Below the pieces are notes generated by a model, which was not told the origin of the DNA, made no database searches, and saw only the letters and a list, made by a program, of their open reading frames with translations. Positions 2,007-43,597 of a DNA stretch of 64,000 bases are shown piece after piece (position 1 is the stretch's first letter; the number at the start of each line of letters is the position of its first letter). The translations under genes and the position numbers were made by a program. This DNA comes from a virus (lineage: Duplodnaviria; Caudoviricetes), in the IMG/VR virus record IMGVR_UViG_3300031820_000003, positions 1 to 64,000 of that record; one strand, given 5' to 3'.

Positions 2007-2174
2007 TTACGATGACTTGTTCGGCACGAAGTAAACGAGAAGTGGTGTTGCGATGGCCACAATGGCAGTGACGGCATCTTGATTGACGGTGACGTGTTGC
2101 CCAAACACAACATTGGCGACGCTCACACCCGCCATGATCAACGCTACAATGGCCTTGTCCTTATCGGTGATCAT
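2007..2174 (-). CDS. Putative holin (55 aa, two TM segments; below the ORF-track cutoff)
   Basis: MITDKDKAIVALIMAGVSVANVVFGQHVTVNQDAVTAIVAIATPLLVYFVPNKSS; overlaps the endolysin stop. Confidence 0.65.
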   Translation of the reverse strand: MITDKDKAIVALIMAGVSVANVVFGQHVTVNQDAVTAIVAIATPLLVYFVPNKSS

Positions 2175-2701
2175 ACGATCGCTCCATTGTTGCCCACATA
2201 ATTCCCGTTCAGGAAAATGTCGTGCTCGGCTTTACGGCGCCGGACGAGACCGGACAGAACGCGGCCAGACGCAATGTCGTAGAGCGCGAAGTCTCGAGCC
2301 GCGAGATTGTAGTTGCCTTCATTCAGCGCGCCGGTCAGCGAGCAGTGCGGATGGGCGAGCCAGCCCGTGTTGAACTGGAAACTAACGAGCGCATCGAACT
2401 GCTGCTGCGTGAGGGGAACCTTGATGTATTGACTGACCTCGTGCTCGACGGCGGCAAGGTCTGACTTCAGGATGTCGTCGGCATCATCAACTGTGATCTC
2501 CTGGCCCACATAGACTTCAGGTTTGCCGGCAGCCGACGTATGACCGTAGCCAATCGTCAGCGTGCCGCGCACTTCCTGACCGGGCTTGACAATGTGGTCG
2601 TTGTAGTCATCGTAAGCTCGCAGGAACAAGCCCTCGTAGCTTTCAATGAACGCGCGGCCCTTGTCAGACGTCATCATCGGATGAGCCCCCATGCGTACCA
2701 T
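2171..2701 (-). CDS. Endolysin, GH24 lysozyme
   Basis: IESYEG..AYDD..TIGYGHT, LTQQQFDALVSFQFN, GLVRRRKAE motifs; AGGA RBS. Confidence 0.92.
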   Translation of the reverse strand: MVRMGAHPMMTSDKGRAFIESYEGLFLRAYDDYNDHIVKPGQEVRGTLTIGYGHTSAAGKPEVYVGQEITVDDADDILKSDLAAVEHEVSQYIKVPLTQQQFDALVSFQFNTGWLAHPHCSLTGALNEGNYNLAARDFALYDIASGRVLSGLVRRRKAEHDIFLNGNYVGNNGAIV

Positions 2702-2759: not shown

Positions 2760-4664
2760 TCACAACACGTAATCGACTTCGCAAAAGCCTGCAGCTCCGG
2801 TGCCGCCGCCTTCGCCAGTCCCCGCACCACCGCTGCCGCCCGATGCCGGCACGACTGCATTGATGCCTATCGTGCTGCCGGTCGTAGCCAGAGGAATAGC
2901 GCCAGACCCGAAACGGGAACCGCCGCCTTGACCGCCCCAGAGAAACGATCCCGGGATAGAAGTTCCCGTGCCTCCGGTTGCTCCGGTATTTGATGCAGTA
3001 GCCCCACCACCCGGTACGCCACCCGCACCACCCGTACCACCACCGCTAGTCACCCCGGTGCCGCCGGTGCCGCCCCCGGCAGATAGAGTTGTAAGTCCCG
3101 TTGCAGCAATTGAGGTCGCGCCGCCGTTACCACCGTTGCCGCCGGTGTTCGCGCCCGCGGTCCCGCCGGCGCCTTTCGTGATCGTAACGACAACGCCGCC
3201 CGCAACACCGTTGAAGGTTCCTTCGATATGTGCGCCGGCGCCGCCACCGCCACCCGCAGCCGTACCGTTTGAACCACCGCCACCCCCACCACCACCATCG
3301 CAGCTATAGTGATAGACCGTCGAGGTGGTCGAATTTGCGTCGGTCGTGAATGTCGCGGCCTGATAATGCAGTACCGCAGCGTTGGTTACTGTACAGGTTC
3401 CCGACGTTGTAATCGTGCAGGTGCCGCTGACGCTGATTCCTGTGCCAGCCGCGATCGCTGCGCTGGTCACCGTTCCAGTGCCAGTCGCTGTTACCCATGA
3501 TGGATTGGCGGCCGCACCGCCGCTCTGCAGCAATTGTCCGCTGCTGCCGGGAGCCAGCGCGACCCAGGACGAGGCATTGCGATAGAGGATATCGCCCTGC
3601 GTCGAGGCAATGGCGCTGTCGATGATGGCACTCAGGCCATCTGCCGCCGGCACCGCCGAGCTGCCGCTGATATTGGCCAGGATCGTGTTGTTGGCGATGG
3701 ATGGCAGCTGCGCGAGTGTGGCCTGTCCGGTCAGGGACGAGAAGGCCGGCGTGCAGGTATTCACCGAGGCTGCCGTAATGAGGCCCTTGCCGTTGACCGT
3801 CACGGTCAGGCATTGCGTGGCCGAGCCGAAGGTGCCGACGTTGCTGTTGACGGTCGCGAGCGTCGTAGCAAAGGTGACGGTGCCCGATCCGGTCACGTCG
3901 CCGGTCAGCGTGGTTGACCCGATCGTGCCGCCATCAGCGATGACCTTGCCGGTCGTGCCGCTGAAGACAGCGACGTGGTTATTGACCGCGCTGATCGGCC
4001 CCACGACGTTCCCGAGGCCAAGACCGGGCGAGGCCAGCGATGGATTGCCGTTCGCATCGAAGATGAAGAACTGACTGGCCCGTGTGGCTGCCGGCGATAG
4101 GACGCTGAGCGTTTCGCCCGGCGGGGCCTGTACGGTACGACCGGCCAAATCGTTTGTCTTGTCCCAAGTCTCGCGGTTCTCCGCGGTGAGCTCGGTCAGC
4201 GCCTGATTGAGATCACGGGCAGCAACGCCGCGGTTCTCGGTGAATTGCACAGTTCGGCGCGGGCGTTCGGCCCCGACGATCTGTACCGTTCCGGTCTGGG
4301 CCGAATTGAAGGTCAGGACCGCATTGGTGATCGGCCGCGGAATGGTGGCAAGCGCGCCTGTTACGCTCGAGAGCGACCAGCCAAAAGTTGGGTCGGTCGA
4401 TAGATAGCGGGTGCCCGCGATCCATACTTCGATCCACTCATCAACGTCAGTGCCCGAGGCGAAGATGGCAAAATTGACCGCGCAGGCGCAGGTCGTCGAC
4501 GAGATCGTATAGCTAGTCCGTCTTTCGGTGTCGGGCAGGGCGGGGACGGGAGGCGGGACTTGAGCTATCGCCGCTCCAATCCCAAAAGAAAAGGGGGCTA
4601 CGGCCAGAGCTAGGAAGCTGACCGCAGCCAGTCTTGGGAGGAACCTTCGACGAGATGTCGTCAT
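2760..4664 (-). CDS. Tail fibre (T7 gp17-like N-terminal adapter, Gly-rich C-terminus) with a Tat-like leader
   Basis: Leader MTTSRRRFL..AIA-Q; adapter-like RPRRT..FTENRG..LNQAL; Gly-rich tip; follows the ejection genes. Confidence 0.8.
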   Translation of the reverse strand: MTTSRRRFLPRLAAVSFLALAVAPFSFGIGAAIAQVPPPVPALPDTERRTSYTISSTTCACAVNFAIFASGTDVDEWIEVWIAGTRYLSTDPTFGWSLSSVTGALATIPRPITNAVLTFNSAQTGTVQIVGAERPRRTVQFTENRGVAARDLNQALTELTAENRETWDKTNDLAGRTVQAPPGETLSVLSPAATRASQFFIFDANGNPSLASPGLGLGNVVGPISAVNNHVAVFSGTTGKVIADGGTIGSTTLTGDVTGSGTVTFATTLATVNSNVGTFGSATQCLTVTVNGKGLITAASVNTCTPAFSSLTGQATLAQLPSIANNTILANISGSSAVPAADGLSAIIDSAIASTQGDILYRNASSWVALAPGSSGQLLQSGGAAANPSWVTATGTGTVTSAAIAAGTGISVSGTCTITTSGTCTVTNAAVLHYQAATFTTDANSTTSTVYHYSCDGGGGGGGGSNGTAAGGGGGAGAHIEGTFNGVAGGVVVTITKGAGGTAGANTGGNGGNGGATSIAATGLTTLSAGGGTGGTGVTSGGGTGGAGGVPGGGATASNTGATGGTGTSIPGSFLWGGQGGGSRFGSGAIPLATTGSTIGINAVVPASGGSGGAGTGEGGGTGAAGFCEVDYVL

Positions 4665-4748
4665 GACGCGCGCAGGATGGCGGTCGGCGCCGCCTCGGCA
4701 ACGCACGTTCATGATCGTTACGGGCCAGAATCGCCAGATAGCGCCGTC

Positions 4749-7700
4749 TCAATGAATGGCAGCTCCAGGCCACTGACTGGGGTCGCGGTTGAGCGGCTTC
4801 ACGCCCATGCTCTCATTGAAACCGTCCTCGGCCGCATCAAGCAGCCGCCGCACCGCAAACAGATTCTGCAGGAAGATTGCCTGCCGCATCTTGTGGGTAT
4901 CCATGGCTGTCCACGTCCCATGGAACGCATCGTTCACTCCACCGGCGATACCCTCCATCTTGGAATAGGTCGGGCCCAGCAGCTCCGACAGGGCGCTGTT
5001 GGACTGCCGGCGGGATAGCGGATGGTCGGCCCCGATCGCCCGGAACATGTCGGTCGACCCACCGGTGAACTTGGCCTGCATGGAATTGAGTTCGGTGAAC
5101 CAGCCCAGGATGGCCGACCGGGAAATGCCTTCCTTGATCCAGTCCTGGGGCCGCTCGCTGGTCGGCGCACCACTCCATAGGGTGTAGGCGCGGTAGGAGA
5201 TCATGCCCATCCCTAGGCTCGCCACGAGCCCCTGGAGGGTGCGGCCATCCATCTGCTGGAGGTTCGAGATCAGAATCTTCTCATGCGCGGCCGCCACGAA
5301 GCTCTTGTACTGCCCGAGCAGGCTGACCACCGGGCCGGACATCCAAAGGGGCTTCTCCATGCCCGGGGTTAGGACCGCCTGGTCAGCGGACCGCGCCACG
5401 GCCGAGGAGAACACGTCCCGGGCCTGGGTATCCTTCCAGTCCGCGGTGTTGGCCACATGGGTCCCGGTCCCGAACTCCTGGCCGCCACCGTCCTTGTAGG
5501 CTTTCCAGATGCGGGTCGCCATGGTGGCGTCGATCCCCGCCAGGGCCATCCGCTCGGTATCCTTGGCCGTCTGAGTGCTGCCGGCGAAGCGCTCCGCGGT
5601 GCGCAGGAACTCGGCTCCCGCCACCGTACCAGCAACGGTCTTCATGCCGTCGGTCCAGGGCCCATGCAGGTTGACCATCATGGACTTGTCGGCAGCCCAG
5701 GCCAGTGCGCGCTCGAACTTGGACCCCGGCATATGGTTGTCGATGACGTCGCCCCACTGATGCGACAGATGACCAATAGCCGAGTCGATCCCGACCCCCA
5801 TGTCCTTCATGGACTGCCGGGCCGCCGTGCCGAACCCGTCACCCAGCCCAATCATCGATTTCAGGAATGGGGCATAACCGTCCCGGAAGACGTTCATCAG
5901 GCCGTGCCGCCAGACCGCATTGGTGGCGTCGGTCATGCGGTTGAAGACCGAGGTACCCAGATCGGTGATGAGATTGTAGCTGCGGGCCGCGTTGGCAATC
6001 CGGGCTGCATTGGGCTGGGTCTTGGCGAGCTCCCAGCCATAGACGCCGCGGACCCGGTCGCGCGTGGCGGCAAGGTCGCGGACCATGGCCTTGCGCTCCC
6101 GGTCGAGCGCCTGCGCCTGCTTCTCAGTCTTAGCGCCAGCCAGCCGAGCGTCGTACTCCTCGTTGAGCTGCTTGAAGACCTGCTGCATCTCGACATCACC
6201 GAATCGGTCGGTCAGGTGAATGTCAGGCAGCGCGGTCCGCAAATGGGCGGCAATGACGTGCTCGGTGTCCGTGTTGACGAAGTCCCGCACCAGCGAGGTC
6301 GGGATAGCGAAGTCGCGGGCATTGAGCGAGCCGCGGACCTGCTGCTGCTCACCGGGCGGCCCAATGACCGGCCCGCCGCTGGCGATGTCGTAGGGCAGCC
6401 GGCCGTCAGGCGCTGTGTTGATGCGGTTGATGATCTCGGCGGCGCGGCCCTCCAGCTCCTGCCGCGACAGGTCGCGATCGGACTTGAGGATTGCCTTGAC
6501 AGCCCGGTCGACCGAACTGTCGGCGCTTTCCAGTCGGCCAGGCTCGCCCTTGAATTCCCCCGCCGCGATCTTCTCAGCCCGCAGCTGCTCTGCCTTCTCG
6601 CGCGCCTTGAGTGCGGCCTTGGCCTCCTGCGCCGATGTGCCATTCCAGTCCGCAATTTCCTTCTCGATCTTGGCCCGCATGGCCTGAGCGTGATCGGTCT
6701 CCTGGATCAACTGCTGCTCGAGCGTTTCAATCTCGCCTTCCTTGCCAGACGCCTGATCAGCGAGCTGATTGCCGCGGCCGCGAATCTTGGTCTCGAAGAC
6801 TGCCCCGCCGCGGGCATTTTCGATCCGCTTCTTTTCCGCGGTACGCAACGTTTCAGCCCGCTGATAGGCGAACTTGTTGAGGCGCGTAATCTCTTCGGCC
6901 TTGTCCTGCAGGGCTTCCAGCGCATCGGTACGGCCGGATAGCTTGGCCTCGATCTTCGCGATATTCAATTCATGCGACTTGAGCGCTCCGCTATAGACCT
7001 GTAGCCGCTCCTTTGCCGCCGCCTTCAGGCTCTGCTCGCTCTCCAGCCAATCGGTGAAAATGCGCTTGACGTCATTGAACCGCGCCGCGATAGCCGGCTT
7101 GTTCCATAGCCGCGGGAAGAATGACTTGTCCCCCTTGGGCGGCTCGAGCGCCTCGGCCAGCATGGGCTTGCCGTCCGGTCCCATGGTGCGCTGGGCCAGC
7201 CGCATGACCGGGTCGAGCACCTGGGACCGAATTTGCTTTGCAGCCGCAGCCACCTCCGGGACGGCATGCACATCGCCGTCGGTCATGGCCGACGACACCG
7301 CCGTCTTGAAGTCATCGAATGACAGCTTGCCGGGCGCCTGCCCGCGCATGTCCTGGATGGTCGCAGCGGCTGTCGGCAGCTTGCTGTCCTGCAAGCCACG
7401 GTACTTGATGAACTGATCGCGCAGGATTTGGCTGTTCGTCAGCTGCCCCTCATGAGCCTGCATCTTGACCAGCCGGTCGACCGGGATGCCACCGCGCGCC
7501 GTGGTGATGCCCTGGTCGGCCTGGGTGAAGCGCAGCGAAGTCTCGGCCAGATCGCCCATGGCGCGCTTGGCGATCAGCGATGCCGACGAGAACACCCGCA
7601 GCGTCGGCGAGAAGCCCATCAATATCTTGCTGGTGTAGTCGAGCGCACCGCCCACGCCGGGCACCTGCCGCAACGCGTGCATGGCATTCTCGGGCAGTAG

Positions 7701-9071
7701 GATGCGCGACAGCTGCATCGTGCGCCGGTCGGATTCGGCGGCGCTCAAATTGCTAGTCAAATTCCGCAGTTCAGATTGCTTCACCTCGCTTGATACAGGA
7801 ACTCCGTTCTTGTGCGTGATCTCGATATCGCTGTCGTCAAAGACGACGTAATGCTTTCCTTTATTCCAATCATAGCGGTTCGCTTTTATTCCAGCTTCTT
7901 TCAGGGCTGAAGTTGCCGCATCTTCACTTCCAGTTTTTTTGACAAGACTCTCATAGAGAGTTTGTCCAGTACTTCCAACTTCAACCCCATTTTGTTCTGC
8001 CAACTCCTTAACCTTGCTTGATTGGTCAGAAATTTTTGCACTCAAGTCCAATATCTTGTCGGGCTCTATTTTTATATTTGTTCGATAAACCGTTGCCTTC
8101 GGACCGCCGCCGGCATCAATGCTAAACCAGCGCGCCTCATCAGCGTCTGTCGTAAAATGAAACCCACGTCCAAATCCAGCCTCTCCAGTCCCTGTGCCAA
8201 TTTTTGTAGGATCAAATTTGTCGAAGCTATAGGGCGACCCATGATATAGTAGAGTCTTTGTGAGGGTCTGCGGCTCGGGCGCCTCGTGCGGGACCAGCTC
8301 GGTCTTGTCGACAAAGGGAAGCTCGCCCTGGTCGGCCCGGGCCAACTCCTGCTCGAATATCTTCTTCTCGGCCGCGTTCGTGATGACAGAAAAGCGCTGC
8401 GGGGCCGGCGTCAAATCCTTACGGATGCTCTCCAGCCCATCCTTGGCTGCGGTTCGCTCGGCCGGCGACAGAAGCCCCAAGCCCCCGCCAACCAGCCCCA
8501 TCAAGAGCGTATTCGTGGCGATGTTCTCAGCACTTTCGGCCGGCGTGCGCGTGACCTGACTGACCTGCAGCGCCGCCTCGGAGACGCTCGACTTGAGCGC
8601 GCCCTCAATCATGCCATGGGCCGCGCGACCGGCTATAGACAGCCCTGCGGCACCCGCGCGCACCTCACCGGCGATCGGGATGAACCAGGACGGATCGGTC
8701 AGGCCAGCCGCCACCGACGACACCGTGCCGAACCAGCCGGATGCGGCCAGCGTCTGCCGATCCTTGACCTCGGCGTTCTTCTTGGCAATCCGGGCATCTG
8801 TCTGCGCCGGGTTGACGTCGGCTAGCGACTGCTCGATCAGGTCGTCGTCCTTGGTGCCGGACAGCCGGTCGACCGGGTTGTAGCCCGGCACCGGCGCCAT
8901 GTCGGGCCGCGAGCGGGATAGAGCATCCAGCACGGATACGACCGGGTTGTTCTGCCGGAAGGCGGCCCCGATCGTCTCCTGGGTGGTCGGCTCATGGAAG
9001 GGCGGCGGCTCGGGCAGGCCGAGCGGTACACGGCCATCCAATGGGTCCTGGCCTTCGGAGAAGAACGGCAT
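4749..9071 (-). CDS. Large internal virion (DNA ejection) protein, T7 gp16 positional analogue
   Basis: 1440 aa, helical and Ala-rich; C-terminal GQYKSF..LQQMDG and W..EG..RS..LG motifs typical of podoviral ejection proteins. Confidence 0.8.
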   Translation of the reverse strand: MPFFSEGQDPLDGRVPLGLPEPPPFHEPTTQETIGAAFRQNNPVVSVLDALSRSRPDMAPVPGYNPVDRLSGTKDDDLIEQSLADVNPAQTDARIAKKNAEVKDRQTLAASGWFGTVSSVAAGLTDPSWFIPIAGEVRAGAAGLSIAGRAAHGMIEGALKSSVSEAALQVSQVTRTPAESAENIATNTLLMGLVGGGLGLLSPAERTAAKDGLESIRKDLTPAPQRFSVITNAAEKKIFEQELARADQGELPFVDKTELVPHEAPEPQTLTKTLLYHGSPYSFDKFDPTKIGTGTGEAGFGRGFHFTTDADEARWFSIDAGGGPKATVYRTNIKIEPDKILDLSAKISDQSSKVKELAEQNGVEVGSTGQTLYESLVKKTGSEDAATSALKEAGIKANRYDWNKGKHYVVFDDSDIEITHKNGVPVSSEVKQSELRNLTSNLSAAESDRRTMQLSRILLPENAMHALRQVPGVGGALDYTSKILMGFSPTLRVFSSASLIAKRAMGDLAETSLRFTQADQGITTARGGIPVDRLVKMQAHEGQLTNSQILRDQFIKYRGLQDSKLPTAAATIQDMRGQAPGKLSFDDFKTAVSSAMTDGDVHAVPEVAAAAKQIRSQVLDPVMRLAQRTMGPDGKPMLAEALEPPKGDKSFFPRLWNKPAIAARFNDVKRIFTDWLESEQSLKAAAKERLQVYSGALKSHELNIAKIEAKLSGRTDALEALQDKAEEITRLNKFAYQRAETLRTAEKKRIENARGGAVFETKIRGRGNQLADQASGKEGEIETLEQQLIQETDHAQAMRAKIEKEIADWNGTSAQEAKAALKAREKAEQLRAEKIAAGEFKGEPGRLESADSSVDRAVKAILKSDRDLSRQELEGRAAEIINRINTAPDGRLPYDIASGGPVIGPPGEQQQVRGSLNARDFAIPTSLVRDFVNTDTEHVIAAHLRTALPDIHLTDRFGDVEMQQVFKQLNEEYDARLAGAKTEKQAQALDRERKAMVRDLAATRDRVRGVYGWELAKTQPNAARIANAARSYNLITDLGTSVFNRMTDATNAVWRHGLMNVFRDGYAPFLKSMIGLGDGFGTAARQSMKDMGVGIDSAIGHLSHQWGDVIDNHMPGSKFERALAWAADKSMMVNLHGPWTDGMKTVAGTVAGAEFLRTAERFAGSTQTAKDTERMALAGIDATMATRIWKAYKDGGGQEFGTGTHVANTADWKDTQARDVFSSAVARSADQAVLTPGMEKPLWMSGPVVSLLGQYKSFVAAAHEKILISNLQQMDGRTLQGLVASLGMGMISYRAYTLWSGAPTSERPQDWIKEGISRSAILGWFTELNSMQAKFTGGSTDMFRAIGADHPLSRRQSNSALSELLGPTYSKMEGIAGGVNDAFHGTWTAMDTHKMRQAIFLQNLFAVRRLLDAAEDGFNESMGVKPLNRDPSQWPGAAIH
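7745..8262 (-). other. In-frame low-GC ADP-ribosyltransferase-like domain (ART-PolyVal type); boundaries approximate
   Basis: YHGS..FDKFD...G.GF.FT..A and EAGI....YVVFD motifs; G+C 23/60 at 8041-8100 vs 40/60 at 7201-7260. Confidence 0.65.
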
Positions 9072-11599
9072 CAGAATGGCGCCTGTACGTCGATAGCCCG
9101 GCTGAAGCCTTCAAGGGACTGCCGGCGGTCGCTGAGCTCGGCGGCGCGGGCGGCGAGCAGCGGCGCGGGATCGAAGCGAAACCGGCCAACCGCGCCGCCG
9201 CCAGGCGCCGTCATCACGCTCCACCGACCATTTCCGTCCTGCACCATGACCTGATAGCTCGGCGGGCGCCCGTTGCTGATATCGCGCTCGGTCTGGTCGT
9301 CAGCGACCAAGGCGCGGGGCGCGCGGTACTCGCGGTTGCCCGGCGTCTCGAGCGCGGCCCGCCGGGCCCGCGCGGCCGCCTGCTCGGGTGACTGCCGGGC
9401 TGGGGCGGGTTCAGCGCCGGGTGACGCCACCGTAGCCCCGGTCGCCTCCTTCACGGCATCGTCCAGCTGCTTCGCCATCCAGTCCTGCGACCCGCCGATC
9501 GCCGGATAATACCGCTCGGGCGCGTAGGGCATGAGGCGGTTGCCATTGACCGCCGAGACCGCGTACTTCAGCTGCAACTTCTCCATCGCAAAGACATCGG
9601 CCGCCGTCGGGTTGCCGGTCGCGGTAAAGCCCTCGCGGTAGTTCTGGTCATAGTCAGCCTTTAGCGCCCCCGAGGCGACCGCCACTTGGTCGGACACAGG
9701 GGCGCGAGCGGTGGTGCCGAACGGCCCAAAACCGGTCGAGAACTTCGACACGATCTTGTCAGCAGTGACAGACTTTAATTGCTCATCAGCCAGCTTTATG
9801 GCCGACTGGTGCGCGGCGGACTGGTCCGGATCGTAGGAGCGCATCATGCGCTTGGCGGCCTCGTCCGGCGGGTAGAACGCCAAGTTGCTCTGCCAGGCCC
9901 GCAGGTTCTTGAGCCCGTCCTTGAACTGCTGGTCGAACTGGAGCGGATTGGCCTTCTGCTGCTGGTCCAGGAACGAATAGGCCGCGGTCATCTTGGCGGT
10001 ATCGCCCGAACGGGCCATGCCTTCGATGCTGTCGCGCACGCCCTTCTCGGCCAGTAGCGCCTGCATATCCTCGCCCTTGACCGCCTGGCCGACGGCGGTA
10101 AGCACGGCGGGACCGTTCTGGCCGGCGAGCGCGGAGCGCAGCGTGCCGACCTCGTCCTTGCCCAGTACCCGCACCGGGCCGCCCTGGAATACATCCTCAC
10201 CGAGCTTGGCGATCTTGGCCCGCGCTGCCACACCGGCGGCAAACTGCTGCGGATTGCCTGCATCAAGCGCCGGCGGCATCTCGATCTTGTCAGGAAACCG
10301 CCGCTGCACCAGCCCCCAGCCCTCATCCTTCAGGGCCGTCTCGGTCTGCGCCTTTGCAGCCTTGAGCTCTTTGGCGATGGCAGCCTCGTTGCCGGTCGCC
10401 GTGCCGCCCTCTACCCTGGCCTCGAGCCCATCGATATAGCGCTGCTGCTCGGGCAGCGGCAGCTTGTTGAATGGCCCGATGACCGCCCGCATGGTGCCAT
10501 ACTGCGACACAGCAGCCGCAAGGAGCGGGTCCTTAGCGTCCATGGCCCGCTTGTGCAGGTCGGCAATGGTGGCCGGGGTCGCGTCGCCCGTCTCCTTGAC
10601 CAGCCGGAAGTCGTCAGCGACGTCCTTGACGGTCTGCCGACGCTCGGCCTCATTCATGTGGATTTCGGAGCGGACCGTCTCGAACGCCGCACGCCGCTGC
10701 ACATCGTTGAGCTTGAGCGACGGATCGGTCAGGATCGACTTGCCGAAGTCGACCGCAGCATTGGGCCCGTCCTGCTCGTAAATCTGGTTGGCATGATACC
10801 GAATGCCCTGGACCTGCAACTCGCTATGGAACTTGTCCATCTCGTAGTTGATCATGTCCTTGGACACGCCGAGCCGCGGATTGTTGGCCATCTCGCCGTA
10901 CAGGGCCTTCATCTGACCGCTGTACTTGTTCCACTCCGGACCGTCGGTCACGCCCTGATTGGCCAGGGCGGTCAGGCTATCCTTGGCGCTCTCGATGCCA
11001 GCCCGGATGCTCGACTCCGCGCGCTGCAAATCGAGGCGCTCCTTCTCGTTCAGGAGCCCGCGGTAGGTGAGTGTCGTCTGCGAGTCGATCAGCTTGCCGA
11101 GCGTGATCCCGACCTCGGGGCCGGCCGCATCGGTATACTCCTTGACCTTTGCATTCTTGAAGGTTCCCGCTGCCGCAAGGTAGCCCTGCGGATTGTCGCG
11201 ATACTTCTCCCGCAGCGCGATATCCTCACGCTTGGCCGCACCCTCGCCCTCCGACACTGCCGCGAACTTGATCGCGCGCGCATAGGTCTTGCCGGCCTCG
11301 CCGAAGATCGGAACCTTGTCGACCTTGATGTTGCCGTTGGCGTCGGTTGTGACGGCCTGTAGCCCAGCGCGCTCAGCCAGCGGCTCGGCCACAGCCTCCA
11401 GCGCCCCGCTGGCCTTGTCAGCCGCACGGGCAATGTTCTCGCCCCGCTGATCGAGCATGTGCCCGAGCATCTGATATGGGCTGGCGATTTCGCTCGGGCT
11501 GACATTCGAGCGCGGCGCCGTGCTGGTAACGACCGGTCCGATGGACGGCTCAACACCGCCGACCTGCGTTTCGCGGACAAAGGGGAGAACGTCAGCCAT
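9071..11599 (-). CDS. Internal virion (ejection) protein, gp15 positional analogue
   Basis: About 840 aa, helical, translationally coupled to both neighbours. Confidence 0.7.
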   Translation of the reverse strand: MADVLPFVRETQVGGVEPSIGPVVTSTAPRSNVSPSEIASPYQMLGHMLDQRGENIARAADKASGALEAVAEPLAERAGLQAVTTDANGNIKVDKVPIFGEAGKTYARAIKFAAVSEGEGAAKREDIALREKYRDNPQGYLAAAGTFKNAKVKEYTDAAGPEVGITLGKLIDSQTTLTYRGLLNEKERLDLQRAESSIRAGIESAKDSLTALANQGVTDGPEWNKYSGQMKALYGEMANNPRLGVSKDMINYEMDKFHSELQVQGIRYHANQIYEQDGPNAAVDFGKSILTDPSLKLNDVQRRAAFETVRSEIHMNEAERRQTVKDVADDFRLVKETGDATPATIADLHKRAMDAKDPLLAAAVSQYGTMRAVIGPFNKLPLPEQQRYIDGLEARVEGGTATGNEAAIAKELKAAKAQTETALKDEGWGLVQRRFPDKIEMPPALDAGNPQQFAAGVAARAKIAKLGEDVFQGGPVRVLGKDEVGTLRSALAGQNGPAVLTAVGQAVKGEDMQALLAEKGVRDSIEGMARSGDTAKMTAAYSFLDQQQKANPLQFDQQFKDGLKNLRAWQSNLAFYPPDEAAKRMMRSYDPDQSAAHQSAIKLADEQLKSVTADKIVSKFSTGFGPFGTTARAPVSDQVAVASGALKADYDQNYREGFTATGNPTAADVFAMEKLQLKYAVSAVNGNRLMPYAPERYYPAIGGSQDWMAKQLDDAVKEATGATVASPGAEPAPARQSPEQAAARARRAALETPGNREYRAPRALVADDQTERDISNGRPPSYQVMVQDGNGRWSVMTAPGGGAVGRFRFDPAPLLAARAAELSDRRQSLEGFSRAIDVQAPF

Positions 11600-12207
11600 C
11601 ACACACCCGTAAAGCTGCCGGATGGCAAAGACGTGTTCCAAGCGGCCGCATCCGTCACCGATACCGTGCTGCTGCCGCCGCCACCGGACCCCAGAGCGCC
11701 GCCAATGCCTTTGAGCACATCAGACCCTGCCGAGATGTAGCCGCTCATTATCGCCGAGCTAGCGCCCACGTCGCCCGTGAGCAATGCCTGATTGGCGGCA
11801 TAGCGCAGATATGCCGCATCAGCCTCATCCTGTCGGGCCTGCTCCTGTATGCTGGATACCTCGATGTCCTTCTGTTCGGTGCCTGTCTGCTCGGTGTAAT
11901 CGCGGATAGCGGCTCCCGTCGGGGACGATGGATCAGCATGAGCTGCCGAGCGGATCGCATCGATATTGCCGAGCGTGATATTGAGATTGCGCGTAAGTTG
12001 GCCAGCAGTCTGCGAAGCCTTCAGCTCGCCATACTGCGCGGCGCGGTCGAGCTCGGCTGCCTTGAACTCATCTCCCGCCGCAACACCAGTCGCATTGAGC
12101 CGATCAGCATTAGCCTGGCCTTGGCCCTTGCTGATATCGCCAAATGCACCAAGCCCGACAGATGCGAGCGATATGGCGGCAGCCGTTGTGCTAACTGGAT
12201 CGCCCAT
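11599..12207 (-). CDS. Small internal virion protein, gp14-like
   Basis: Gly/Ala-rich N-terminus and Q/A-rich helix; follows the nozzle gene. Confidence 0.75.
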   Translation of the reverse strand: MGDPVSTTAAAISLASVGLGAFGDISKGQGQANADRLNATGVAAGDEFKAAELDRAAQYGELKASQTAGQLTRNLNITLGNIDAIRSAAHADPSSPTGAAIRDYTEQTGTEQKDIEVSSIQEQARQDEADAAYLRYAANQALLTGDVGASSAIMSGYISAGSDVLKGIGGALGSGGGGSSTVSVTDAAAWNTSLPSGSFTGV

Positions 12208-14477
12208 CAGATGCTCACCTCAATGCCGATCTCATGGATGATCAGCGGCCCCGGCGTGTTCTTGATAACCGCAACGCGCGGATCGAACGCGCGGCCGAGC
12301 GGGCGCCAGCGCTGTGCCTCCTCGCGAAGTGCAGGCGGCTTGGTTGGGTCATCATCCTGATTCCACGTGTCTACACGATGGATGTTCATGCCCGTGCCAA
12401 GCGCCGGCGAAGTTCTTGTCAATGGCCCCGAGAACAGCCGCGACATAATGAATCCTGACGATTGCGACACATACACCGCCATCCGCGACACACGCCGCTT
12501 GAACATGCGCTGATGTACGTTTTGACCAGGCGAGGCATCCGGCACAAACGGCTCGAGCGTGGCAATCCATGGCTGTCCAGCCACGAGCGAGGCGGTCGTC
12601 AAGTCCTCACCTGCATTGCCCTGCGGAATGATATTGCCGTTGGCATCAACCGTATATGTGCCCATCATGCGATTCGTCTGATCCATCAGCGTCACCGTGG
12701 CACCGGGACCAGGAAAGACGAACAGCGGGCCTTTGCCGCCAGGTGGCGTGAATGGCGCAGGAAGACTGTTAACCAACAATACGCTATCGAGATATAGCGT
12801 GTTGTCGAGAACCTCAACAATGCTGACCGGCGTTACACCGTTCGGCGCATAACTGGTCGTGAATACGACATCGGAATTGAGCGCGCCAATCCAGGAAGCG
12901 GTGCCAGCGCCCGTCCATGGCGTCCAGCCGACATGGGGCTTTCCATCAGGCCCGGCATCAAGCAATCCATTCTTCATCAGATATTTGCCGACCGCTATCG
13001 TGCCATCGACATTGAGAACGTAAAGGTAGGTCTCCTCGTACTGCGTCGACCCTGTCGGGATTGCGATGGCTACCGGATTGTTGAACAGATGCGCGTGCAG
13101 CTCTGAAATGTTGTCGACCACATATGGCCTATAGTAGGCACCCGGCACCTGCACGGCGCCGATCTGCGTACCGCCGGCCTTGACATAGATGATCGATTGC
13201 TCTGCCGAGCGCGGCTGCACAGATGACGACGCGCCGAGCCTTGACAGTTGATTGAAAGAGATGGAACCGGGCTTGAGCGGGTTGGTTGCCGTGATCGGAA
13301 TATAATAGATCGAGTTATCACAAAAAACGAACTCGGAGCCCTCCATGCCGGGCTCAACGAACAGAACCTGCGACTTGCCCGGCGCAAGCTCGAATATCGC
13401 CTGATTCGCCAATGTTCCGACCTGGAAGTCATTGAGAACGCCGATCGCAGAGTAACCGATGCCGGCCGGCAATGATGGAAAGTTGCAAAATCCCAATCGG
13501 TTCTGATCCACAAACACGGATGCGGGCCATCCCCGCAGTGCGCTCATGACCTCCTCGTCCCACTGGAACGTGGCTTGCGGCAAGATCGAGAACGGCGCCC
13601 CCACCAGCACAAATGTTCCACTCGGGCCCACAATGGTTTCACCAGCGGTGAACCCCGCCGTATTCTGCATATAGTTGACAAGCAGAAAAGCGGAATTGAC
13701 CTGCGCGACCTCGGCCTGGATCGACCCGTCGGTCACCACATCACCAACCGAGAACGATCCTGACGTTACATTACCGGTCAACTCCTGAGACAAATTCAAT
13801 TGCTGCAGAACTTTTCCGGTTGCAGTTGTTGAATTGGTGACGCCAGTGATCAGAATTTGCTTTCCAATATAGCGGATTATGCTCCCGACCATATTGTTGG
13901 TGAAGTAATTGCCGACCGTGCGCAGATTGATAGCGGTACCGACGCGATCAGATGGCGTCAGCGTGATGTTGCTGGCGGCAAACCGGTAGAATGGCTCATG
14001 CAAGGCGCCGGTCGAATCCGCCAGAAATGAAAAGTTGACGACGGACCACGTCGATACGCCATCCCAGCTCAGGATAACCGGGATGAACCCGCGATAACAA
14101 ATATAGATCGACGATCGATACGCAGCCCAGACGATGCGATTCTGATCAGTCGTCCAGTTATATCCGCTCTGGGTAAAGACCCTGGCTCCCGTCGAATCGT
14201 AGACCCGCAAAATGCCGTTGTTGGAAAACACAAGATAGAATGTATTGACGACGCCCGGCGTCGCCGACAGCATCAAGATTTCCTCAACGCGTCCCGTTTC
14301 GAGAAACAGTGCTCGGCGGCCGGGGCGATTGGTCACCGCTCGAGAATTGAGAATGCGAAGATTTGCGCATTGGCGCGCACCCGACTTCATCAGCGGGTTC
14401 TCGTCGGCGCGCTTCATCGTGACGTCGATCTCGCCGGCCGAGAAGTCGCGTTGGGCCCCCTGTATCTTTGGGATCAT
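12207..14477 (-). CDS. Tail tubular protein B (nozzle, T7 gp12-like)
   Basis: N-terminal QRDFSAGEI..N..RPG and GWPASV motifs; 756 aa; position. Confidence 0.85.
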   Translation of the reverse strand: MIPKIQGAQRDFSAGEIDVTMKRADENPLMKSGARQCANLRILNSRAVTNRPGRRALFLETGRVEEILMLSATPGVVNTFYLVFSNNGILRVYDSTGARVFTQSGYNWTTDQNRIVWAAYRSSIYICYRGFIPVILSWDGVSTWSVVNFSFLADSTGALHEPFYRFAASNITLTPSDRVGTAINLRTVGNYFTNNMVGSIIRYIGKQILITGVTNSTTATGKVLQQLNLSQELTGNVTSGSFSVGDVVTDGSIQAEVAQVNSAFLLVNYMQNTAGFTAGETIVGPSGTFVLVGAPFSILPQATFQWDEEVMSALRGWPASVFVDQNRLGFCNFPSLPAGIGYSAIGVLNDFQVGTLANQAIFELAPGKSQVLFVEPGMEGSEFVFCDNSIYYIPITATNPLKPGSISFNQLSRLGASSSVQPRSAEQSIIYVKAGGTQIGAVQVPGAYYRPYVVDNISELHAHLFNNPVAIAIPTGSTQYEETYLYVLNVDGTIAVGKYLMKNGLLDAGPDGKPHVGWTPWTGAGTASWIGALNSDVVFTTSYAPNGVTPVSIVEVLDNTLYLDSVLLVNSLPAPFTPPGGKGPLFVFPGPGATVTLMDQTNRMMGTYTVDANGNIIPQGNAGEDLTTASLVAGQPWIATLEPFVPDASPGQNVHQRMFKRRVSRMAVYVSQSSGFIMSRLFSGPLTRTSPALGTGMNIHRVDTWNQDDDPTKPPALREEAQRWRPLGRAFDPRVAVIKNTPGPLIIHEIGIEVSI

Positions 14478-14489
14478 AGCTGCTCAGCC

Positions 14490-15266
14490 TCAGGCCACCC
14501 AAGAAGAAAGAGCGACAAATAATGCGATCATTCCTGGGATATTCGATCCGCCCCAATTGTTGATGCCGAGCGGCGGCCACGGCCGGCGAACACGGCGCGC
14601 TGCCGTAATGCGCGAATTGAAGAACTGCCGCTTGGGCTTTTGCTGGTCGTAACGGGTCCGCGCGCGCTGCAGCATCGCCTCACCAGCCTGCCACATCTTG
14701 TCGCCCTCTGCCGGGTCCTCATGCAGACCGCGGTAGATGGCCGCCATGATGAAGTTCTGCAGCGCAACGATCAGCGTTGGCGTGCCAGAGGTGGAATCCG
14801 AGAGCGGTCCGGAATTCGAGATGTACTTGAGCGTGATCTGTGCAGGCGTGACAGGAGGGCTCGGGGGCGGCGGACCGCCCTGTGCATTGACGACGATCAC
14901 CGGACCATTTGGGGTGCCGGCAATATCGTATAGGACCGGCGCAGGCGTGACGCTGGTGAAATCGGTCGACGTGTTGTCCTGATTGATCTTGAGCCAGATG
15001 ATGTGGACGCAGTCCGCGGGGATCGGATAGGCAGTGTCCCAGGCCGTATCCTGCGGCGCGGTCGGGCTCGGCTGAAGCGTCACGACCTGGCTGGCAAAGC
15101 CCCAGCCGTGACTTTCCATCATGTAGCCCATCGCCCGCTCATAGGCGGGAGAGCTGACATTCCACTCATCAGAGCCGTCATCGGCCACATTGACGAGATT
15201 GTCGCCGCAGAACATCAGGGCGGCGTTGATAGCGCCAAGTTTATCGATCGGAAAGGTGTAGCTCAT
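14490..15266 (-). CDS. Tail tubular protein A (adaptor, T7 gp11-like)
   Basis: INAAL..CG, H.WGFA, AYP.PADC motifs; precedes the nozzle gene. Confidence 0.85.
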   Translation of the reverse strand: MSYTFPIDKLGAINAALMFCGDNLVNVADDGSDEWNVSSPAYERAMGYMMESHGWGFASQVVTLQPSPTAPQDTAWDTAYPIPADCVHIIWLKINQDNTSTDFTSVTPAPVLYDIAGTPNGPVIVVNAQGGPPPPSPPVTPAQITLKYISNSGPLSDSTSGTPTLIVALQNFIMAAIYRGLHEDPAEGDKMWQAGEAMLQRARTRYDQQKPKRQFFNSRITAARRVRRPWPPLGINNWGGSNIPGMIALFVALSSWVA

Positions 15267-15323
15267 GCCGCACGGTGCTGCGGGACCCCAGAACGGGCAA
15301 CGCACGTTAGGGGCGGCACTCTT

Positions 15324-17330
15324 TTATTGCACCATACCGCCGGTGTTTGGAGCTATGATCTGGTTGAGCTTGGCCGCCAGCAGGTTACCGAAGGCGATGC
15401 TGCCCTGCGCGTTGATGCCGCCGATGTGGATGCCATCGGTCCAAAAATAATTGGTGCTGGTGTAGCAGGATTGGCAGCCAAGGTTCGGATCACTCCCGAT
15501 ATCGACAAACCCACTATTGCCCGTCAGGGGCCCGGCGGCAACCAGCGTATTGAAGCCGGTGAAGCCGCCACCGCCGAGGCGCCACTGCTCCATGGTTTCC
15601 GATACGGTGCCACCCGTAATGGTCGTCGTCCCAAGCCCCGTGGCAGCCGTGTAATTGACAGTCGTACCTGTGGTGCCAGCGGTCGTCGTGAAGTTGCCAT
15701 CGAGACTCGCGAAGGCGCCAGTACCCGTCAGCCCGGACGCATGCACGAAATATCCATTCGTGTATGGCACCGACCCCGACATCGTAAGACTGACCGCGCC
15801 GGTCCCACTATTGTAAGTCCCGCTGGTGATCGTAACGCCCGAGCTGGCCACCACTTGATTGTAGGAGGCCACGGGAATGTAAAATATCCCCGCCCACGCT
15901 GGAGCGCTCTGCGCGGCCAATGTCGTGTAGAACGATTGCAGCGACGCAAATACCGTAGCTGGGCTTTGTCCGCTGACATCCGCTTCGTGCTCACCGCCAT
16001 TGAAGGCGAGCACGTTTGCCGCGGCCGTCGAACTCATCAGCGCCGCGTCGCGGGTCGAATAGTTCGATACGATCGTTCCAAGCAGCTCGCCGGTGATCGC
16101 TGTGTTGATCCATTGCACCGGCTGATTGAGCTTACCGTTCAGGATCGCATAGAGCATCGCTCCATAGCCAGATCCGCCAACGGTCGTGCTTGTGGTTCCC
16201 GATTGCGGAAAGTGACTGTGGTCTGGGTTGGATATCTCGCTGTCGCCGTCCGTGATCACAGTGAAGTTGGCAAGCTGCGGCACCACGCCAAAGAGTTGGT
16301 ACATCCCGAGGCGCACGAGCTGCGCATTGGTGGTGGACAGCGCTGACGTGTAGATGATGACGGCCTGGACCGTCCCGTCGAGGAACCCCGGCCCGCTCGT
16401 GCACTGCACGCATTTGCCGATGATGCCACCGGTCGGGCTGCCTTTGGTTTTCCAATTACCATTCGTGACCGAACGCTCGCCCCAGAAAGCCGTTGCCGAG
16501 CCCGCCGTCGAGCCCGAGATCATGGAGAAGACCTGTGGATTGCTCTCTGCTGTCGTCCCGGTCTCGCCGCCGCTTGCGGTCAGATTGACCGCTGTTTCGT
16601 CCGACCAGCTATTGGTCGATGTCGATTTGACATAGTACGCCTGGAAATCCGTGGTCGCCGTGCCAAGCTCGAACATCGCCGGCTGATAGCCGCCAACGAC
16701 GCTCGAAAGCTGCGACATCTGGAAGAAAGAGAAGGTCGTTCCCCATGCTACGCTCGGCAGATTGAAGAAGTAGTTTCCGCTACCCGATGGAGGCGGAGTT
16801 AGCTTCGAGAAGACAAAATAGACTTGTGTGCCGACAACGCGGATAAACGGCGCATTGGCGATCGTTCCCTGCGTGGCATCACGCGCATTACCGCTCTGGT
16901 CGTAGCACTTGGTCGCCTGACAGACCGTGCCGCTGCAGAACGAATTGAGCGTCGCAATATCGGTTACGCCACTGATCGCTGCTATTGTTCGCGATGTACT
17001 GTCAGATGCGCGCTGCACATCGAACAGATTACCATTCGCCCATGCGGTCGTAAGCGGAGTCGTGCCGCAGTCAAAAGCTGGTGTCGTGCCTACACTAGCA
17101 TCAGCCGGAAGCCAGTTGATCGCCCCGTTATCGGTCCATGCGGCTGCGCCCGCAGAAACGCTCGTCGCCTTGAACCAGTGTGTATTAGTAAGGTTGACCC
17201 ATATGCGACCAACCACATTCCCGCGCTGCGAGTCATCCTGCGCAGTCGGGCTGCGTGTGGAGTTGTTCGGATATGAGAATGCCGGAATCGCGAGCAGCAA
17301 CCCAACGAATGCAGCCGCATTTCTACGCAT
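15324..17330 (-). CDS. Signal-peptide protein: ConA/LamG-like domain plus SGNH esterase domain
   Basis: Leader MRRNAAAFVGLLLAIPAFS; CYDQSGN; GDS motif near 16240 and DGIH near 15430. Confidence 0.65.
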   Translation of the reverse strand: MRRNAAAFVGLLLAIPAFSYPNNSTRSPTAQDDSQRGNVVGRIWVNLTNTHWFKATSVSAGAAAWTDNGAINWLPADASVGTTPAFDCGTTPLTTAWANGNLFDVQRASDSTSRTIAAISGVTDIATLNSFCSGTVCQATKCYDQSGNARDATQGTIANAPFIRVVGTQVYFVFSKLTPPPSGSGNYFFNLPSVAWGTTFSFFQMSQLSSVVGGYQPAMFELGTATTDFQAYYVKSTSTNSWSDETAVNLTASGGETGTTAESNPQVFSMISGSTAGSATAFWGERSVTNGNWKTKGSPTGGIIGKCVQCTSGPGFLDGTVQAVIIYTSALSTTNAQLVRLGMYQLFGVVPQLANFTVITDGDSEISNPDHSHFPQSGTTSTTVGGSGYGAMLYAILNGKLNQPVQWINTAITGELLGTIVSNYSTRDAALMSSTAAANVLAFNGGEHEADVSGQSPATVFASLQSFYTTLAAQSAPAWAGIFYIPVASYNQVVASSGVTITSGTYNSGTGAVSLTMSGSVPYTNGYFVHASGLTGTGAFASLDGNFTTTAGTTGTTVNYTAATGLGTTTITGGTVSETMEQWRLGGGGFTGFNTLVAAGPLTGNSGFVDIGSDPNLGCQSCYTSTNYFWTDGIHIGGINAQGSIAFGNLLAAKLNQIIAPNTGGMVQ

Positions 17331-18505: not shown

Positions 18506-18514
18506 GGCGCGACC

Positions 18515-19309
18515 TCAGAATTGCGCGTACCAGACATCGACATCGACGCCGCCGGTGCCGGTCGATTTTGCGCAGAGACCAAACCCCGCCGAGGTTTTCA
18601 GCCCCGACCAGAAATTGCCGCCCCACGTTTCCCCGGTATTCGCGGCTTCCGTTGCGATGCCATTAATCTGCGCGAGCGTTCCATTGCAGGTAGCCGACTG
18701 ATCAGCTTCCGTTTCCAGCAACCATGTAGCCACGCCAGCCGCACGAGACCGCCACGAGCACACATAAATAACTTGAGACGCCACACCTTGAACGAACATG
18801 GTGTCGGTCGCGGTCGTAATGTGCTTGAAAACATGATTGTCGCAGTTGATCGGCGCCGCGACGTGACCGCCGGTCGCCCCGGATTCGAGCACGCCCTGAT
18901 AGAGAGCGTTCGCGGGAGGAGCTGCACCCGTCGCCGCATCGAATGCACCGCCGGCATTACCGACCACCCGATCGGTCCATGTCCCGGACTGGGTAACCGG
19001 GATAGCGCTTTGATTGCTCGCAATCGCCACCGGCGCCGAATTGGCCATGGTGGCTTGGCCGTTGGAGTTAAGACCCGACGTGATGTTGACGCTGACCGCG
19101 CCACCGGCCGATACGGCAGCACATTGGTTCTCAGTCGTCGCATCGCAGACGCCGGTCTCGCTGATGACGCGAGTCGAGGCGAAGCTGATCAGGTTGGCGA
19201 TCTTGCCGGAACCGACCGTCACCCCGATCGTGTCATTAGTTGCCCATGCAACGGCTGCTCCATAAAAGACCAGGAACAGAGCGAGGAGTATCTTGCTTTT
19301 CCGGCTCAT
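18515..19309 (-). CDS. Signal-peptide beta-rich putative virion protein
   Basis: Leader MSRKSKILLALFLVFYGAAVAWA-T; C-terminal jelly-roll-like segment. Confidence 0.6.
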   Translation of the reverse strand: MSRKSKILLALFLVFYGAAVAWATNDTIGVTVGSGKIANLISFASTRVISETGVCDATTENQCAAVSAGGAVSVNITSGLNSNGQATMANSAPVAIASNQSAIPVTQSGTWTDRVVGNAGGAFDAATGAAPPANALYQGVLESGATGGHVAAPINCDNHVFKHITTATDTMFVQGVASQVIYVCSWRSRAAGVATWLLETEADQSATCNGTLAQINGIATEAANTGETWGGNFWSGLKTSAGFGLCAKSTGTGGVDVDVWYAQF

Positions 19310-20084: not shown

Positions 20085-20103
20085 CGGCCAACCCCCCGTT
20101 GGA

Positions 20104-43143: not shown

Positions 43144-43153
43144 GAGGGTGAGA

Positions 43154-43393: not shown

Positions 43394-43417
43394 TCATCGG
43401 TCGAGAGACAAGAGGAA

Positions 43418-43579: not shown

Positions 43580-43597
43580 CTTTTTTCTCCGCAAAAG

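Follow-up and report, generated by a model that had tools for sequence, protein, structure and literature searches.

The tail-fibre locus

The window analysed here, a stretch of 64,000 nucleotides from a Caudoviricetes virus (positions 1 to 64,000 of IMG/VR record IMGVR_UViG_3300031820_000003), carries a tail-fibre gene on its minus strand at positions 2760..4664, with 634 codons counted from an ATG at 4664. The gene lies in a late structural operon, after the genes for gp14-16-like internal virion proteins and before those for lysis. The features of the locus are listed below in order of coordinate.

2007..2701, minus strand: lysis genes directly after the fibre gene, for a Phage_lysozyme endolysin and a 55-aa holin-like protein
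2760..4136, minus strand: variable shaft and glycine-rich C-terminal (receptor-binding) part of the fibre, stop codon included
4137..4523, minus strand: T7 gp17-type tail-attachment domain, a beta-sandwich and long helix predicted by an AlphaFold2 model and fold search
4524..4562, minus strand: predicted mature N-terminus, with Gln at +1 and a proline-rich linker (family consensus QAPPPVPALPD)
4563..4664, minus strand: leader of 34 codons, with a basic n-region containing S-R-R-R-F-L, a hydrophobic core and A-I-A
4665..4712, minus strand: optional upstream extension of 16 codons from an alternative ATG at 4712, the gene caller's start
4749..11641, minus strand: gp15- and gp16-like internal virion (ejection) proteins (phrog_342, phrog_16310, ART-PolyVal)
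12207..15305, minus strand: tail tubular A- and B-like proteins (adaptor, nozzle; phrog_394, phrog_376)
15324..20715, minus strand: six consecutive late ORFs of 203, 181, 82, 264, 391 and 684 aa, with signal-peptide-like leaders and even cysteine numbers

The gp15- and gp16-like proteins, which adjoin the fibre upstream, have no leader and contain one and zero cysteines. A crude scan likewise found no leader on the two tail tubular proteins (A- and B-like) to which the fibre is expected to dock. In each of the six late ORFs, a leader goes together with an even cysteine count in the mature part. The 264-aa protein of this cassette was sought in five related genomes and was missing from all of them, so the six-gene cassette does not always accompany the fibre; in the complete relative G005, five leader-bearing ORFs are found downstream of the fibre instead. 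The endolysin is without a leader, and the holin-like protein has two hydrophobic segments. An outer-membrane barrel with a leader follows the holin, and in one relative an acetyltransferase adjoins the fibre. An integrase encoded at positions 41329-42558 marks the phage as temperate. No tRNA was found in a scan of the window, and a promoter and terminator scan around the fibre gene returned nothing above chance.

The original prediction had described the gene as a T7-type tail fibre with a gp17-like attachment domain directly behind a leader. At the sequence level, no Pfam family matched the fibre, PF03906 (Phage_T7_tail) included, NCBIfam gave nothing either, a profile of the fibre family searched against PDB sequences came back empty, and PHROGs returned a weak phrog_863 match confined to the C-terminal residues 258-630. 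An AlphaFold2 model of the mature N-terminal part (pLDDT 74, moderate confidence) was compared by Foldseek and VIA-align with 9efk, 8ck1, 8e4g, 7boz and 8i4m. Z values were 10.0 for LME-1, 9.3 for Carin-1, and 8.7 and 8.3 for T7 gp17, over 107-124 residues, and the top ten fold matches were all N-domains of podovirus fibres. The attachment domain is thus borne out by predicted fold (Z 8.3-10.0), not by sequence. This tail-docking domain, of which the whole record holds one copy, is the best-conserved part of the fibre, and homologues exchange the C-terminal part for pectate-lyase, peptidase S74 or Gly-rich domains. Fold, gene position, and the pairing of a conserved N-domain with variable C-terminal domains bear out the tail-fibre assignment; this is the sole T7-type tail fibre of the soil phage.

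The fibre family comprises 711 clusters at 50% identity, found in Bradyrhizobium prophages and soil viromes. Strains whose prophages include a family member are, for example, B. manausense SZCCT0118, B. cajani 1010 and Bradyrhizobium sp. Arg816. A tblastn search of 50,697 records of cultured phages with the full-length fibre gave no match at E 1e-3, and a search for the N-domain in 400 evenly sampled Alphaproteobacteria returned just the Bradyrhizobium genome already known. The nearest cultured phage, Microcystis phage Mwe-JY08 (PP395640.1), was found solely through its tail tubular B protein, which is 33% identical to that of the window over 99% of its length. The two phages have the same gene order between the tail tube proteins and the endolysin, and the N-domain of the Mwe-JY08 fibre (WWT39917.1) is 36% identical to that of the window fibre over 131 residues; a word-index search with the Mwe-JY08 N-domain gave no matches. 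Unlike the window fibre, the Mwe-JY08 fibre starts eight residues before the domain, without a leader or a Pro-rich linker, and it has Gly-Pro where the window family has Cys-x-Cys and only 3 cysteines among its 980 residues. In the part of Mwe-JY08 that was examined (14000-45453, 31.5 kb), no leader was observed on any structural protein.

Translation and type of the leader

The sequence on which the original prediction rested, SRRRFL and a hydrophobic core ending in AIA before Gln, is present on the minus strand at 4664..4563; base 4562, given there as the lower limit, opens the Gln codon. The uncharged hydrophobic core is 23 residues long and is followed by A-I-A and then Gln35. The form reported by the gene caller (P0001, start ATG 4712) has 650 aa, and the leader lies inside the protein with either start, but the starts of the closest relatives align with ATG 4664, not ATG 4712. 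Because ATG 4664 is the only ATG, GTG or TTG in the first 120 codons, the leader is concluded to be translated. A start downstream of the leader, which the original prediction had named as fatal to it, finds no candidate codon among codons 2-120. The corresponding explanation, an annotation artefact in which the true protein begins after the leader, is scarcely credible and already close to refuted. It could draw on the absence of a clear Shine-Dalgarno sequence before both ATG 4664 and ATG 4712, but strong Shine-Dalgarno sequences are missing from the related genes as well, and the leader frame is open and, in over 200 relatives and 17 related loci, conserved as a signal peptide. In 9 of these 17 loci, mature residues 1-45 are also devoid of start codons.

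Leaders were called by a crude rule-based scan and were found in 203 of the 207 homologues retrieved, the other four being truncated or missed by the search pattern; the counts that follow (n=203) cover homologues whose leader fitted that pattern. Judged from these sequences, the presence of a leader on the fibre is beyond chance. The median length is 22 residues. Position -1 is A or G in 94% of leaders, position -3 is A, S, V or T in 93%, and position +1 is Gln in 177 (87%) and Cys in none. A lipoprotein signal was rejected because of this lack of Cys at +1. Behind the predicted cleavage site, P3, L9, P10 and D11 of the mature N-terminus are invariant in alignment A1. Core sequences are highly divergent across the leaders with their hydrophobicity maintained, and a helix-breaking Pro is present in the c-region. 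The window leader has the make-up of a Sec-type signal, with a net positive n-region, 23 uncharged residues, and A-I-A followed by Gln.

Uncleaved signal-anchor segments are known in phage lysis proteins, namely the SAR endolysins and T4 RI, and by this precedent the hydrophobic N-terminus might stay on the fibre as an inner-membrane tether, or as a tail element with a role in structure or assembly. Such an outcome is improbable here. The near-universal small residues at -3 and -1, the c-region Pro and the conserved Gln at +1 suit the requirements of signal peptidase I rather than those of an anchor, and the leucine-rich cores are unlike the weakly hydrophobic SAR segments. A positive n-region held inside would place the body of the protein in the periplasm anyway, and the leader offers no specific packing surface because the core sequences are not conserved.

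The original prediction had taken the leader for a twin-arginine signal by which a fibre folded and trimerised in the cytoplasm would pass through TatABC and be attached late. The n-region at codons 4-10 (S-R-R-R-F-L-P) does fit S/T-R-R-x-F-L, the leader is long at 34 residues and ends in AxA, and Tat is widely used in the host genus, Pfam TAT_signal giving 66 matches, 17 of them over the cut-off, in the positive control B. lupini BA2. Across the family, RR occurs in 90 of 203 leaders (44%) and is absent from 56%. Where present, it is usually followed by two hydrophobic residues, an arrangement that would suit Tat and that 48 of an initial set of 120 leaders show, but the strict Tat motif is found in just 2 of 203. 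Leaders without RR have RK, KR, KK, HR or one basic residue. The three closest relatives lack RR. NK, NE, KK or RS stands in its place among close relatives, the nearest (N-domain 73-80% identical to that of the window fibre) having NK, NE or a single K, and some near-identical leaders vary solely by RR versus RK, KR or HR. Pfam TAT_signal (PF10518) had no match on the fibre at E <=0.01 or across the record at E <=10, and the NCBIfam TAT signal models had none on the fibre at E <=1; these models are short, and search filters may lose weak matches to them. TatC was sought in the virus record and was absent, as expected for a record of this kind.

Eighteen genuine Bradyrhizobium Tat signals (PF10518, B. 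lupini BA2) resemble the window leader in their S/T/K-R-R-x-F/L-L start, AxA-type end and length, and differ from it in what lies between. Lys follows F-L in 12 of the 18, whereas Pro takes that place in the window leader, and their cores are rich in Ala, Gly, Thr and Ser, with 3.2 strongly hydrophobic residues per 14 and a mean Kyte-Doolittle value over the 14-residue core of 1.16 +/- 0.25 (maximum 1.69). The window leader, at 2.29 and with 7 strongly hydrophobic residues per 14, lies above all 18 and inside the range of its own family (2.11 +/- 0.28). Cristobal and colleagues reportedly found in 1999 that a more hydrophobic core diverts Tat signals to Sec. The other six leaders of the phage are plain Sec-type. 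Because RR is not conserved among homologous fibres, the comparison on which the original prediction had itself staked the claim, the Tat reading fails. The SRRRFL match in the window leader does not go beyond chance, and Tat export of the fibre is very improbable. The leader is in all likelihood of the Sec type rather than Tat, and is best explained as an ordinary signal peptide cleaved by signal peptidase I, with incidental twin arginines.

Paired cysteines and the proposed export of the fibre

A Cys-x-Cys pair is located in the first strands of the attachment domain and is shared by 202 of 203 close relatives. The window fibre has eight cysteines, and the cysteine count of the mature fibre is even in 178 of 203 homologues (p 1e-29). 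A strict coupling of leader and Cys-x-Cys was considered and rejected: the more distant members L085-L088, together with P0048, have a leader and Gly-Pro at this site, and such leader-bearing members without the pair keep 6-12 cysteines. Two leaderless relatives have 3 (Mwe-JY08) and 0 (L090). Leader-bearing proteins of the phage contain 1.85% cysteine, versus 0.48% for the rest (Fisher p 1.4e-8). The even-cysteine signature is in keeping with folding that follows export rather than precedes it, and so speaks against both Tat and the pre-folded, pre-trimerised substrate that had been proposed with it. It does not prove periplasmic folding, because disulfides can also form spontaneously after release.

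Export of the fibre followed by late attachment remains the leading idea, because the leader is translated, conserved, of an export type and furnished with AxA at its end. Under this proposal, to which we give about an even chance, the late-expressed pre-fibre would be threaded unfolded through SecYEG and cut after A-I-A, which would expose Gln35. Folding and trimerisation would take place in the periplasm, with the eight cysteines paired by the host Dsb system, and the fibre would wait there while DNA-filled, fibre-less particles matured in the cytoplasm. When the holin opened the inner membrane and the endolysin removed the wall, the two pools would meet, and the gp17-like N-domain would dock on the adaptor-nozzle junction at lysis. 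The same Sec route is probably followed by the six late proteins encoded at 15324-20715, with their leaders and paired cysteines. The computed support is joint, from a translated and conserved leader, a Sec-like core, even cysteines and a tail-docking fold. From the sequences, real export of the fibre is considered likely; we infer its cleavage and disulfides, and that the fibres of the virion derive from the exported pool is evenly balanced. The full scheme is offered more tentatively, as a possible two-compartment phage in which the capsid, tail tube and ejection proteins are cytoplasmic, and the entire host-recognition set, made up of the fibre and the six-gene cassette, is Sec-exported, disulfide-bonded in the periplasm and added only at lysis, once holin lesions have joined the compartments. 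We know of no tailed phage that completes its particles across two compartments only at lysis, and a literature search gave none either; nor was a published description of signal peptides on tailed-phage fibres found in the literature. Joining two compartments only at lysis also looks inefficient.

An exported fibre could instead have a job outside the virion. The Sec signal would then work, but the fibre would act in the cell envelope during infection or lysogeny, for example in receptor masking or destruction, superinfection exclusion or surface conversion, and virions would use a minor unexported fraction. The temperate lifestyle fits such a role, as do the other envelope genes (the leader-bearing barrel after the holin, and the acetyltransferase by the fibre of a relative) and the interpretation of Porphyromonas phage signal peptides as envelope modification (Matrishin and colleagues, PMC10367356). 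It is nonetheless unlikely, given that the fibre gene is inside the late structural operon, with ejection proteins and lysis genes on either side, and is the sole gene with a tail-docking domain and lacks an internal start. Receptors on the outer face would be beyond the reach of a periplasmic fibre, and it would be difficult to account for conservation being strongest in the tail-docking domain if exported fibres never met a tail.

A working signal would mean one of two things: that virions are completed outside the cytoplasm, or that export of fibre-like proteins for some other purpose is routine among phages. Both would matter for how the host range of phages of nitrogen-fixing soil bacteria is determined, for fibre expression in engineering, where cytoplasmic, non-oxidising expression may fail, and for the annotation of secreted 'hypothetical proteins' in prophages. 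The Tat claim, against which the evidence stands, is of lesser importance.

Comparison with known systems

Tailed phages are taught to assemble wholly in the cytoplasm. The predicted N-domain fold of the window fibre is shared with T7 gp17 and its solved relatives (7boz, 7ey9, 8e4g, LME-1 9efk, Carin-1 8ck1 and P-SCSP1u 8i4m), and the window family and T7-type fibres have in common a gene placed after the internal virion proteins and a conserved anchor joined to exchangeable receptor-binding domains. In the solved T7-type fibres the domain begins at residue 1-6, without a leader, whereas the window family has an extra signal peptide of 20-34 residues, a Gln-Pro-rich linker, Cys-x-Cys and many paired cysteines. 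A cut at AxA before Gln would leave an N-terminus only ~4-12 residues longer than those of the solved fibres.

The coat proteins pIII and pVIII of filamentous phages are virion proteins with Sec signal peptides; they acquire disulfide bonds in the periplasm and are incorporated into the particle outside the cytoplasm. Filamentous phages differ from the window phage in that their assembly proceeds by extrusion at the membrane, without a cytoplasmic capsid, and to our knowledge nothing comparable has been described for tailed phages. Sec signal peptides with a +1 Gln have been noted on genes of Porphyromonas gingivalis phages (Matrishin and colleagues 2023, PMC10367356); these genes encode capsid proteins, spanins and products of unknown function, and were read as prohead-protease substrates or envelope modifiers, with no mention of tail fibres such as that of the window phage. 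In the cultured Cellulophaga phage phi10:1 (KC821618.1), gp091-gp094 are late tail-end proteins that, like the window fibre, have short signal-peptide-like leaders and Gln at +1. This phage differs from the window phage as a siphovirus of Bacteroidota, with no homology, no gp17-type domain and few cysteines, and its record is silent on export. MS/MS of virions is the basis on which the four proteins are annotated as structural, and this record is the only experimental hint found that leader-bearing proteins may reach particles.

The predicted tail fibre and its leader

The window covers positions 1 to 64,000 of an 86.9-kb IMG/VR virus record, and its first ~43 kb is a temperate short-tailed phage with the following features.

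ATG 4664 to stop at 2760, minus strand: fibre open frame
ATG 4712, minus strand: alternative start of the fibre frame, 16 codons upstream of ATG 4664
4664..4563, minus strand: leader, first 34 codons: a basic n-region with S-R-R-R-F-L, then a stretch of 23 uncharged residues, then A-I-A followed by Gln35
15324-20715, minus strand: six consecutive late ORFs, flanked by capsid and tail genes and all starting with an ordinary Sec-type leader
41329-42558: integrase
Minus strand: terminase, portal and major capsid protein
Minus strand: tail tubular A- and B-like proteins, three internal virion proteins and the fibre gene
Minus strand: lysozyme-type endolysin without a leader, and a small holin-like protein

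The SRRRFL leader with an AxA site described in the original prediction is present in frame, apart from slips in the strand and in one base at the lower coordinate, and its 23-residue uncharged stretch is mostly hydrophobic. Sequence models of the fibre gave no informative match in Pfam, in NCBIfam, or when the family profile was compared with PDB sequences. Mature residues 1-296 were modeled with AlphaFold2 using 81 homologues (pLDDT 74). The ten best structural matches of this model were all N-terminal tail-attachment domains of podovirus fibres; Z was 10.0 for LME-1, 9.3 for Carin-1, 8.7 and 8.3 for T7 gp17, and 8.6 for cyanophage P-SCSP1u. The fibre gene follows gp14-16-like proteins in the window, in a 45.6-kb relative, and in the cultured Microcystis phage Mwe-JY08 (PP395640.1). 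The proposed gp17-like domain is thus upheld by predicted fold and gene context, and the gene is accepted as a T7-type tail fibre on these grounds rather than by Pfam membership.

The conserved part of the family is the first ~150 mature residues, and the remainder is exchanged among relatives (pectate-lyase, peptidase S74 or glycine-rich modules). One copy of the N-domain occurs in the whole record. The family comprises 711 clusters at 50% identity and more than 541 at 90%, with members in Bradyrhizobium isolates and soil viromes. A sample of 400 other Alphaproteobacteria yielded no N-domain match, and no cultured phage carrying a family member was found in the cultured-phage records searched.

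Several neighboring and related genes were also noted. An outer-membrane beta-barrel gene (1322-1993, minus strand; Pfam OMP_b-brl) comes next after the holin-like gene and encodes a signal peptide of its own, no spanin-like gene was noticed on inspection of the window's ORF lists alone, and the gp16-like ejection protein (4749-9071, minus strand) contains an ART-PolyVal ADP-ribosyltransferase domain (residues 274-420, E 1.3e-7). In the complete genome of B. lupini BA2, the fibre N-domain match is split across two reading frames (L055/L056, G002:C1:3506458-3506941), and this prophage fibre gene may be frameshifted. Mwe-JY08 (L054, 26190-28370) has an unannotated tail tubular B homologue with a tRNA-Gly annotated inside it; among the phages compared here, those structurally nearest to it are of the Bradyrhizobium type, which is odd for a cyanophage. 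Two fibre-carrying contigs (L026, L028) are assigned to MAGs with the names Salinibacterium (a contig of 43.6 kb, roughly the size of a phage genome) and Casimicrobiaceae; these contigs are probably mis-binned phage DNA, and the named taxa not true hosts. In the 45.6-kb relative encoding the homologous fibre P0024, a hexapeptide-repeat acetyltransferase is encoded immediately past the fibre gene on the other strand, and it is a candidate moron gene for surface modification.

Leader conservation and export route

A leader was scored in 203 of the 207 members fetched, the other four being truncated gene calls or outside the search pattern. The median leader length is 22 residues, and the predicted cleavage site has Ala or Gly at -1 (94%), Ala, Ser, Val or Thr at -3 (93%), and Gln at +1 (87%). 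The cores vary freely in sequence while keeping their hydrophobic character, a pattern of signal-peptide evolution. Within the initial 120 codons of the window's gene, ATG 4664 is the sole possible start (ATG, GTG or TTG), and mature residues 1-45 lack any start codon in 9 of 17 related loci, so translation cannot skip the leader by the later start that the original prediction had raised against itself. The Gln at +1 (4560-4562 in the window) resembles the "Q-rule" described for Bacteroidota, the hosts here being Alphaproteobacteria, and its conservation may indicate a pyroglutamyl N-terminus.

The leader had been read as a twin-arginine (Tat) signal, a reading that the original prediction itself made conditional on a conserved RR. 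RR is not conserved: 90 of the 203 leaders have it, and in the remainder its place is taken by RK (29), KR (9), KK (8), HR or one lone basic residue. In the closest relatives (N-domain 73-80% identical) the aligned positions are occupied by N-K, N-E or just one K, and there are near-identical leader pairs whose sole difference is RR versus RK, KR or HR. The pattern [ST]-R-R-x-hydrophobic-hydrophobic fits two of 203 leaders. Since so many leaders have RR, mostly with two hydrophobic residues next in line, a match such as the window's does not exceed what chance would give. Neither Pfam TAT_signal nor NCBIfam matched the fibre; the same Pfam model matched 66 places in the genome of B. lupini BA2, which carries a prophage of the fibre family, and none of these lay inside that prophage. 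Core hydrophobicity (Kyte-Doolittle over the 14 residues after the motif) was 1.16 +/- 0.25 in 18 genuine Tat signals from B. lupini BA2 (maximum 1.69; 3.2 strongly hydrophobic residues) and 2.11 +/- 0.28 in the fibre family (6.7 such residues). The window's leader, at 2.29 with seven, exceeds every Tat control and sits at the 73rd percentile among the fibre leaders. Cristobal and colleagues reportedly found in 1999 that higher core hydrophobicity diverts Tat signals to Sec. Given the RR counts, the lack of a Tat model match and the core values, the Tat interpretation was not borne out, and it is highly improbable that this leader is a Tat signal.

Cysteine pairing and other leader-bearing proteins

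Cysteine counts are even in 178 of 203 mature fibres (binomial p 1e-29) and reach 26 per fibre, and 202 of the 203 have Cys-x-Cys in the first strands of the N-domain. More distant leader-bearing members have Gly-Pro in its place, yet contain 6-12 cysteines. The Mwe-JY08 fibre, with an N-domain 36% identical and the same gene order, differs in lacking a leader and has 3 cysteines in 980 residues. A second leaderless fibre (locus L090) opens with its equivalent of the conserved P-D-T-E-R-R-T motif and has 0 cysteines in 459 residues. Judged by these two relatives, leader and paired cysteines go together. Dutton and colleagues (2008) are said to have shown that an even-cysteine bias marks exported, Dsb-oxidised proteins. 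As a sequence signature, the bias is more readily reconciled with a protein that folds once exported (Sec) than with one exported already folded (Tat), and disulfides may also form after release.

The mature proteins of the six late ORFs contain 4, 4, 4, 6, 10 and 8 cysteines, and cysteine content is 1.85% in leader-bearing proteins versus 0.48% in other phage proteins (p 1.4e-8). No leader was found on the tail tubular proteins, ejection proteins, capsid or portal of the window's phage. The six-ORF cassette is not conserved together with the fibre in relatives, judged by its 264-aa protein, of which five related genomes had no match. In a complete 48-kb relative with terminal repeats (G005), five leader-bearing ORFs of 116-882 aa lie downstream of the fibre (9650-15559), a position unrelated to that of the cassette. 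One further leader-bearing ORF lies elsewhere in G005 (9650-15559 and 43024-43599 being the ranges for all six). Within the cassette, the 684-aa ORF partly matches ArabFuran-catal (E 5.6e-11) and has a 62-residue module in common with the 391-aa ORF (60% identity).

A possible route to the virion

On the favoured reading, the fibre would be exported via Sec, cut between A-I-A and Gln, folded oxidatively and trimerised in the periplasm, and docked on completed particles after holin lesions have merged the two compartments. Canonical holins form micron-scale holes, and T7 particles without fibres can be completed with free fibre. After cleavage at this site, the N-terminus would exceed that of solved fibres, whose domain begins at residue 1-6, by only 4-12 residues; an uncleaved leader would place 34 extra hydrophobic residues at the docking end. 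In a Sec form, the original proposal that the fibre is exported and attached late still stands, with about an even chance of being correct, export, cleavage and virion origin all being predicted from sequence.

No description of a secretion signal on a tailed-phage fibre was found in the literature. Matrishin and colleagues described Sec signals in Porphyromonas phages on genes for capsid proteins, spanins and products of unknown function, fibres not being among them (PMC10367356). Similar leaders occur on gp091-094 of Cellulophaga phage phi10:1, which are annotated as structural from MS/MS; these are the one experimental hint verified in this analysis that leader-bearing proteins reach particles.
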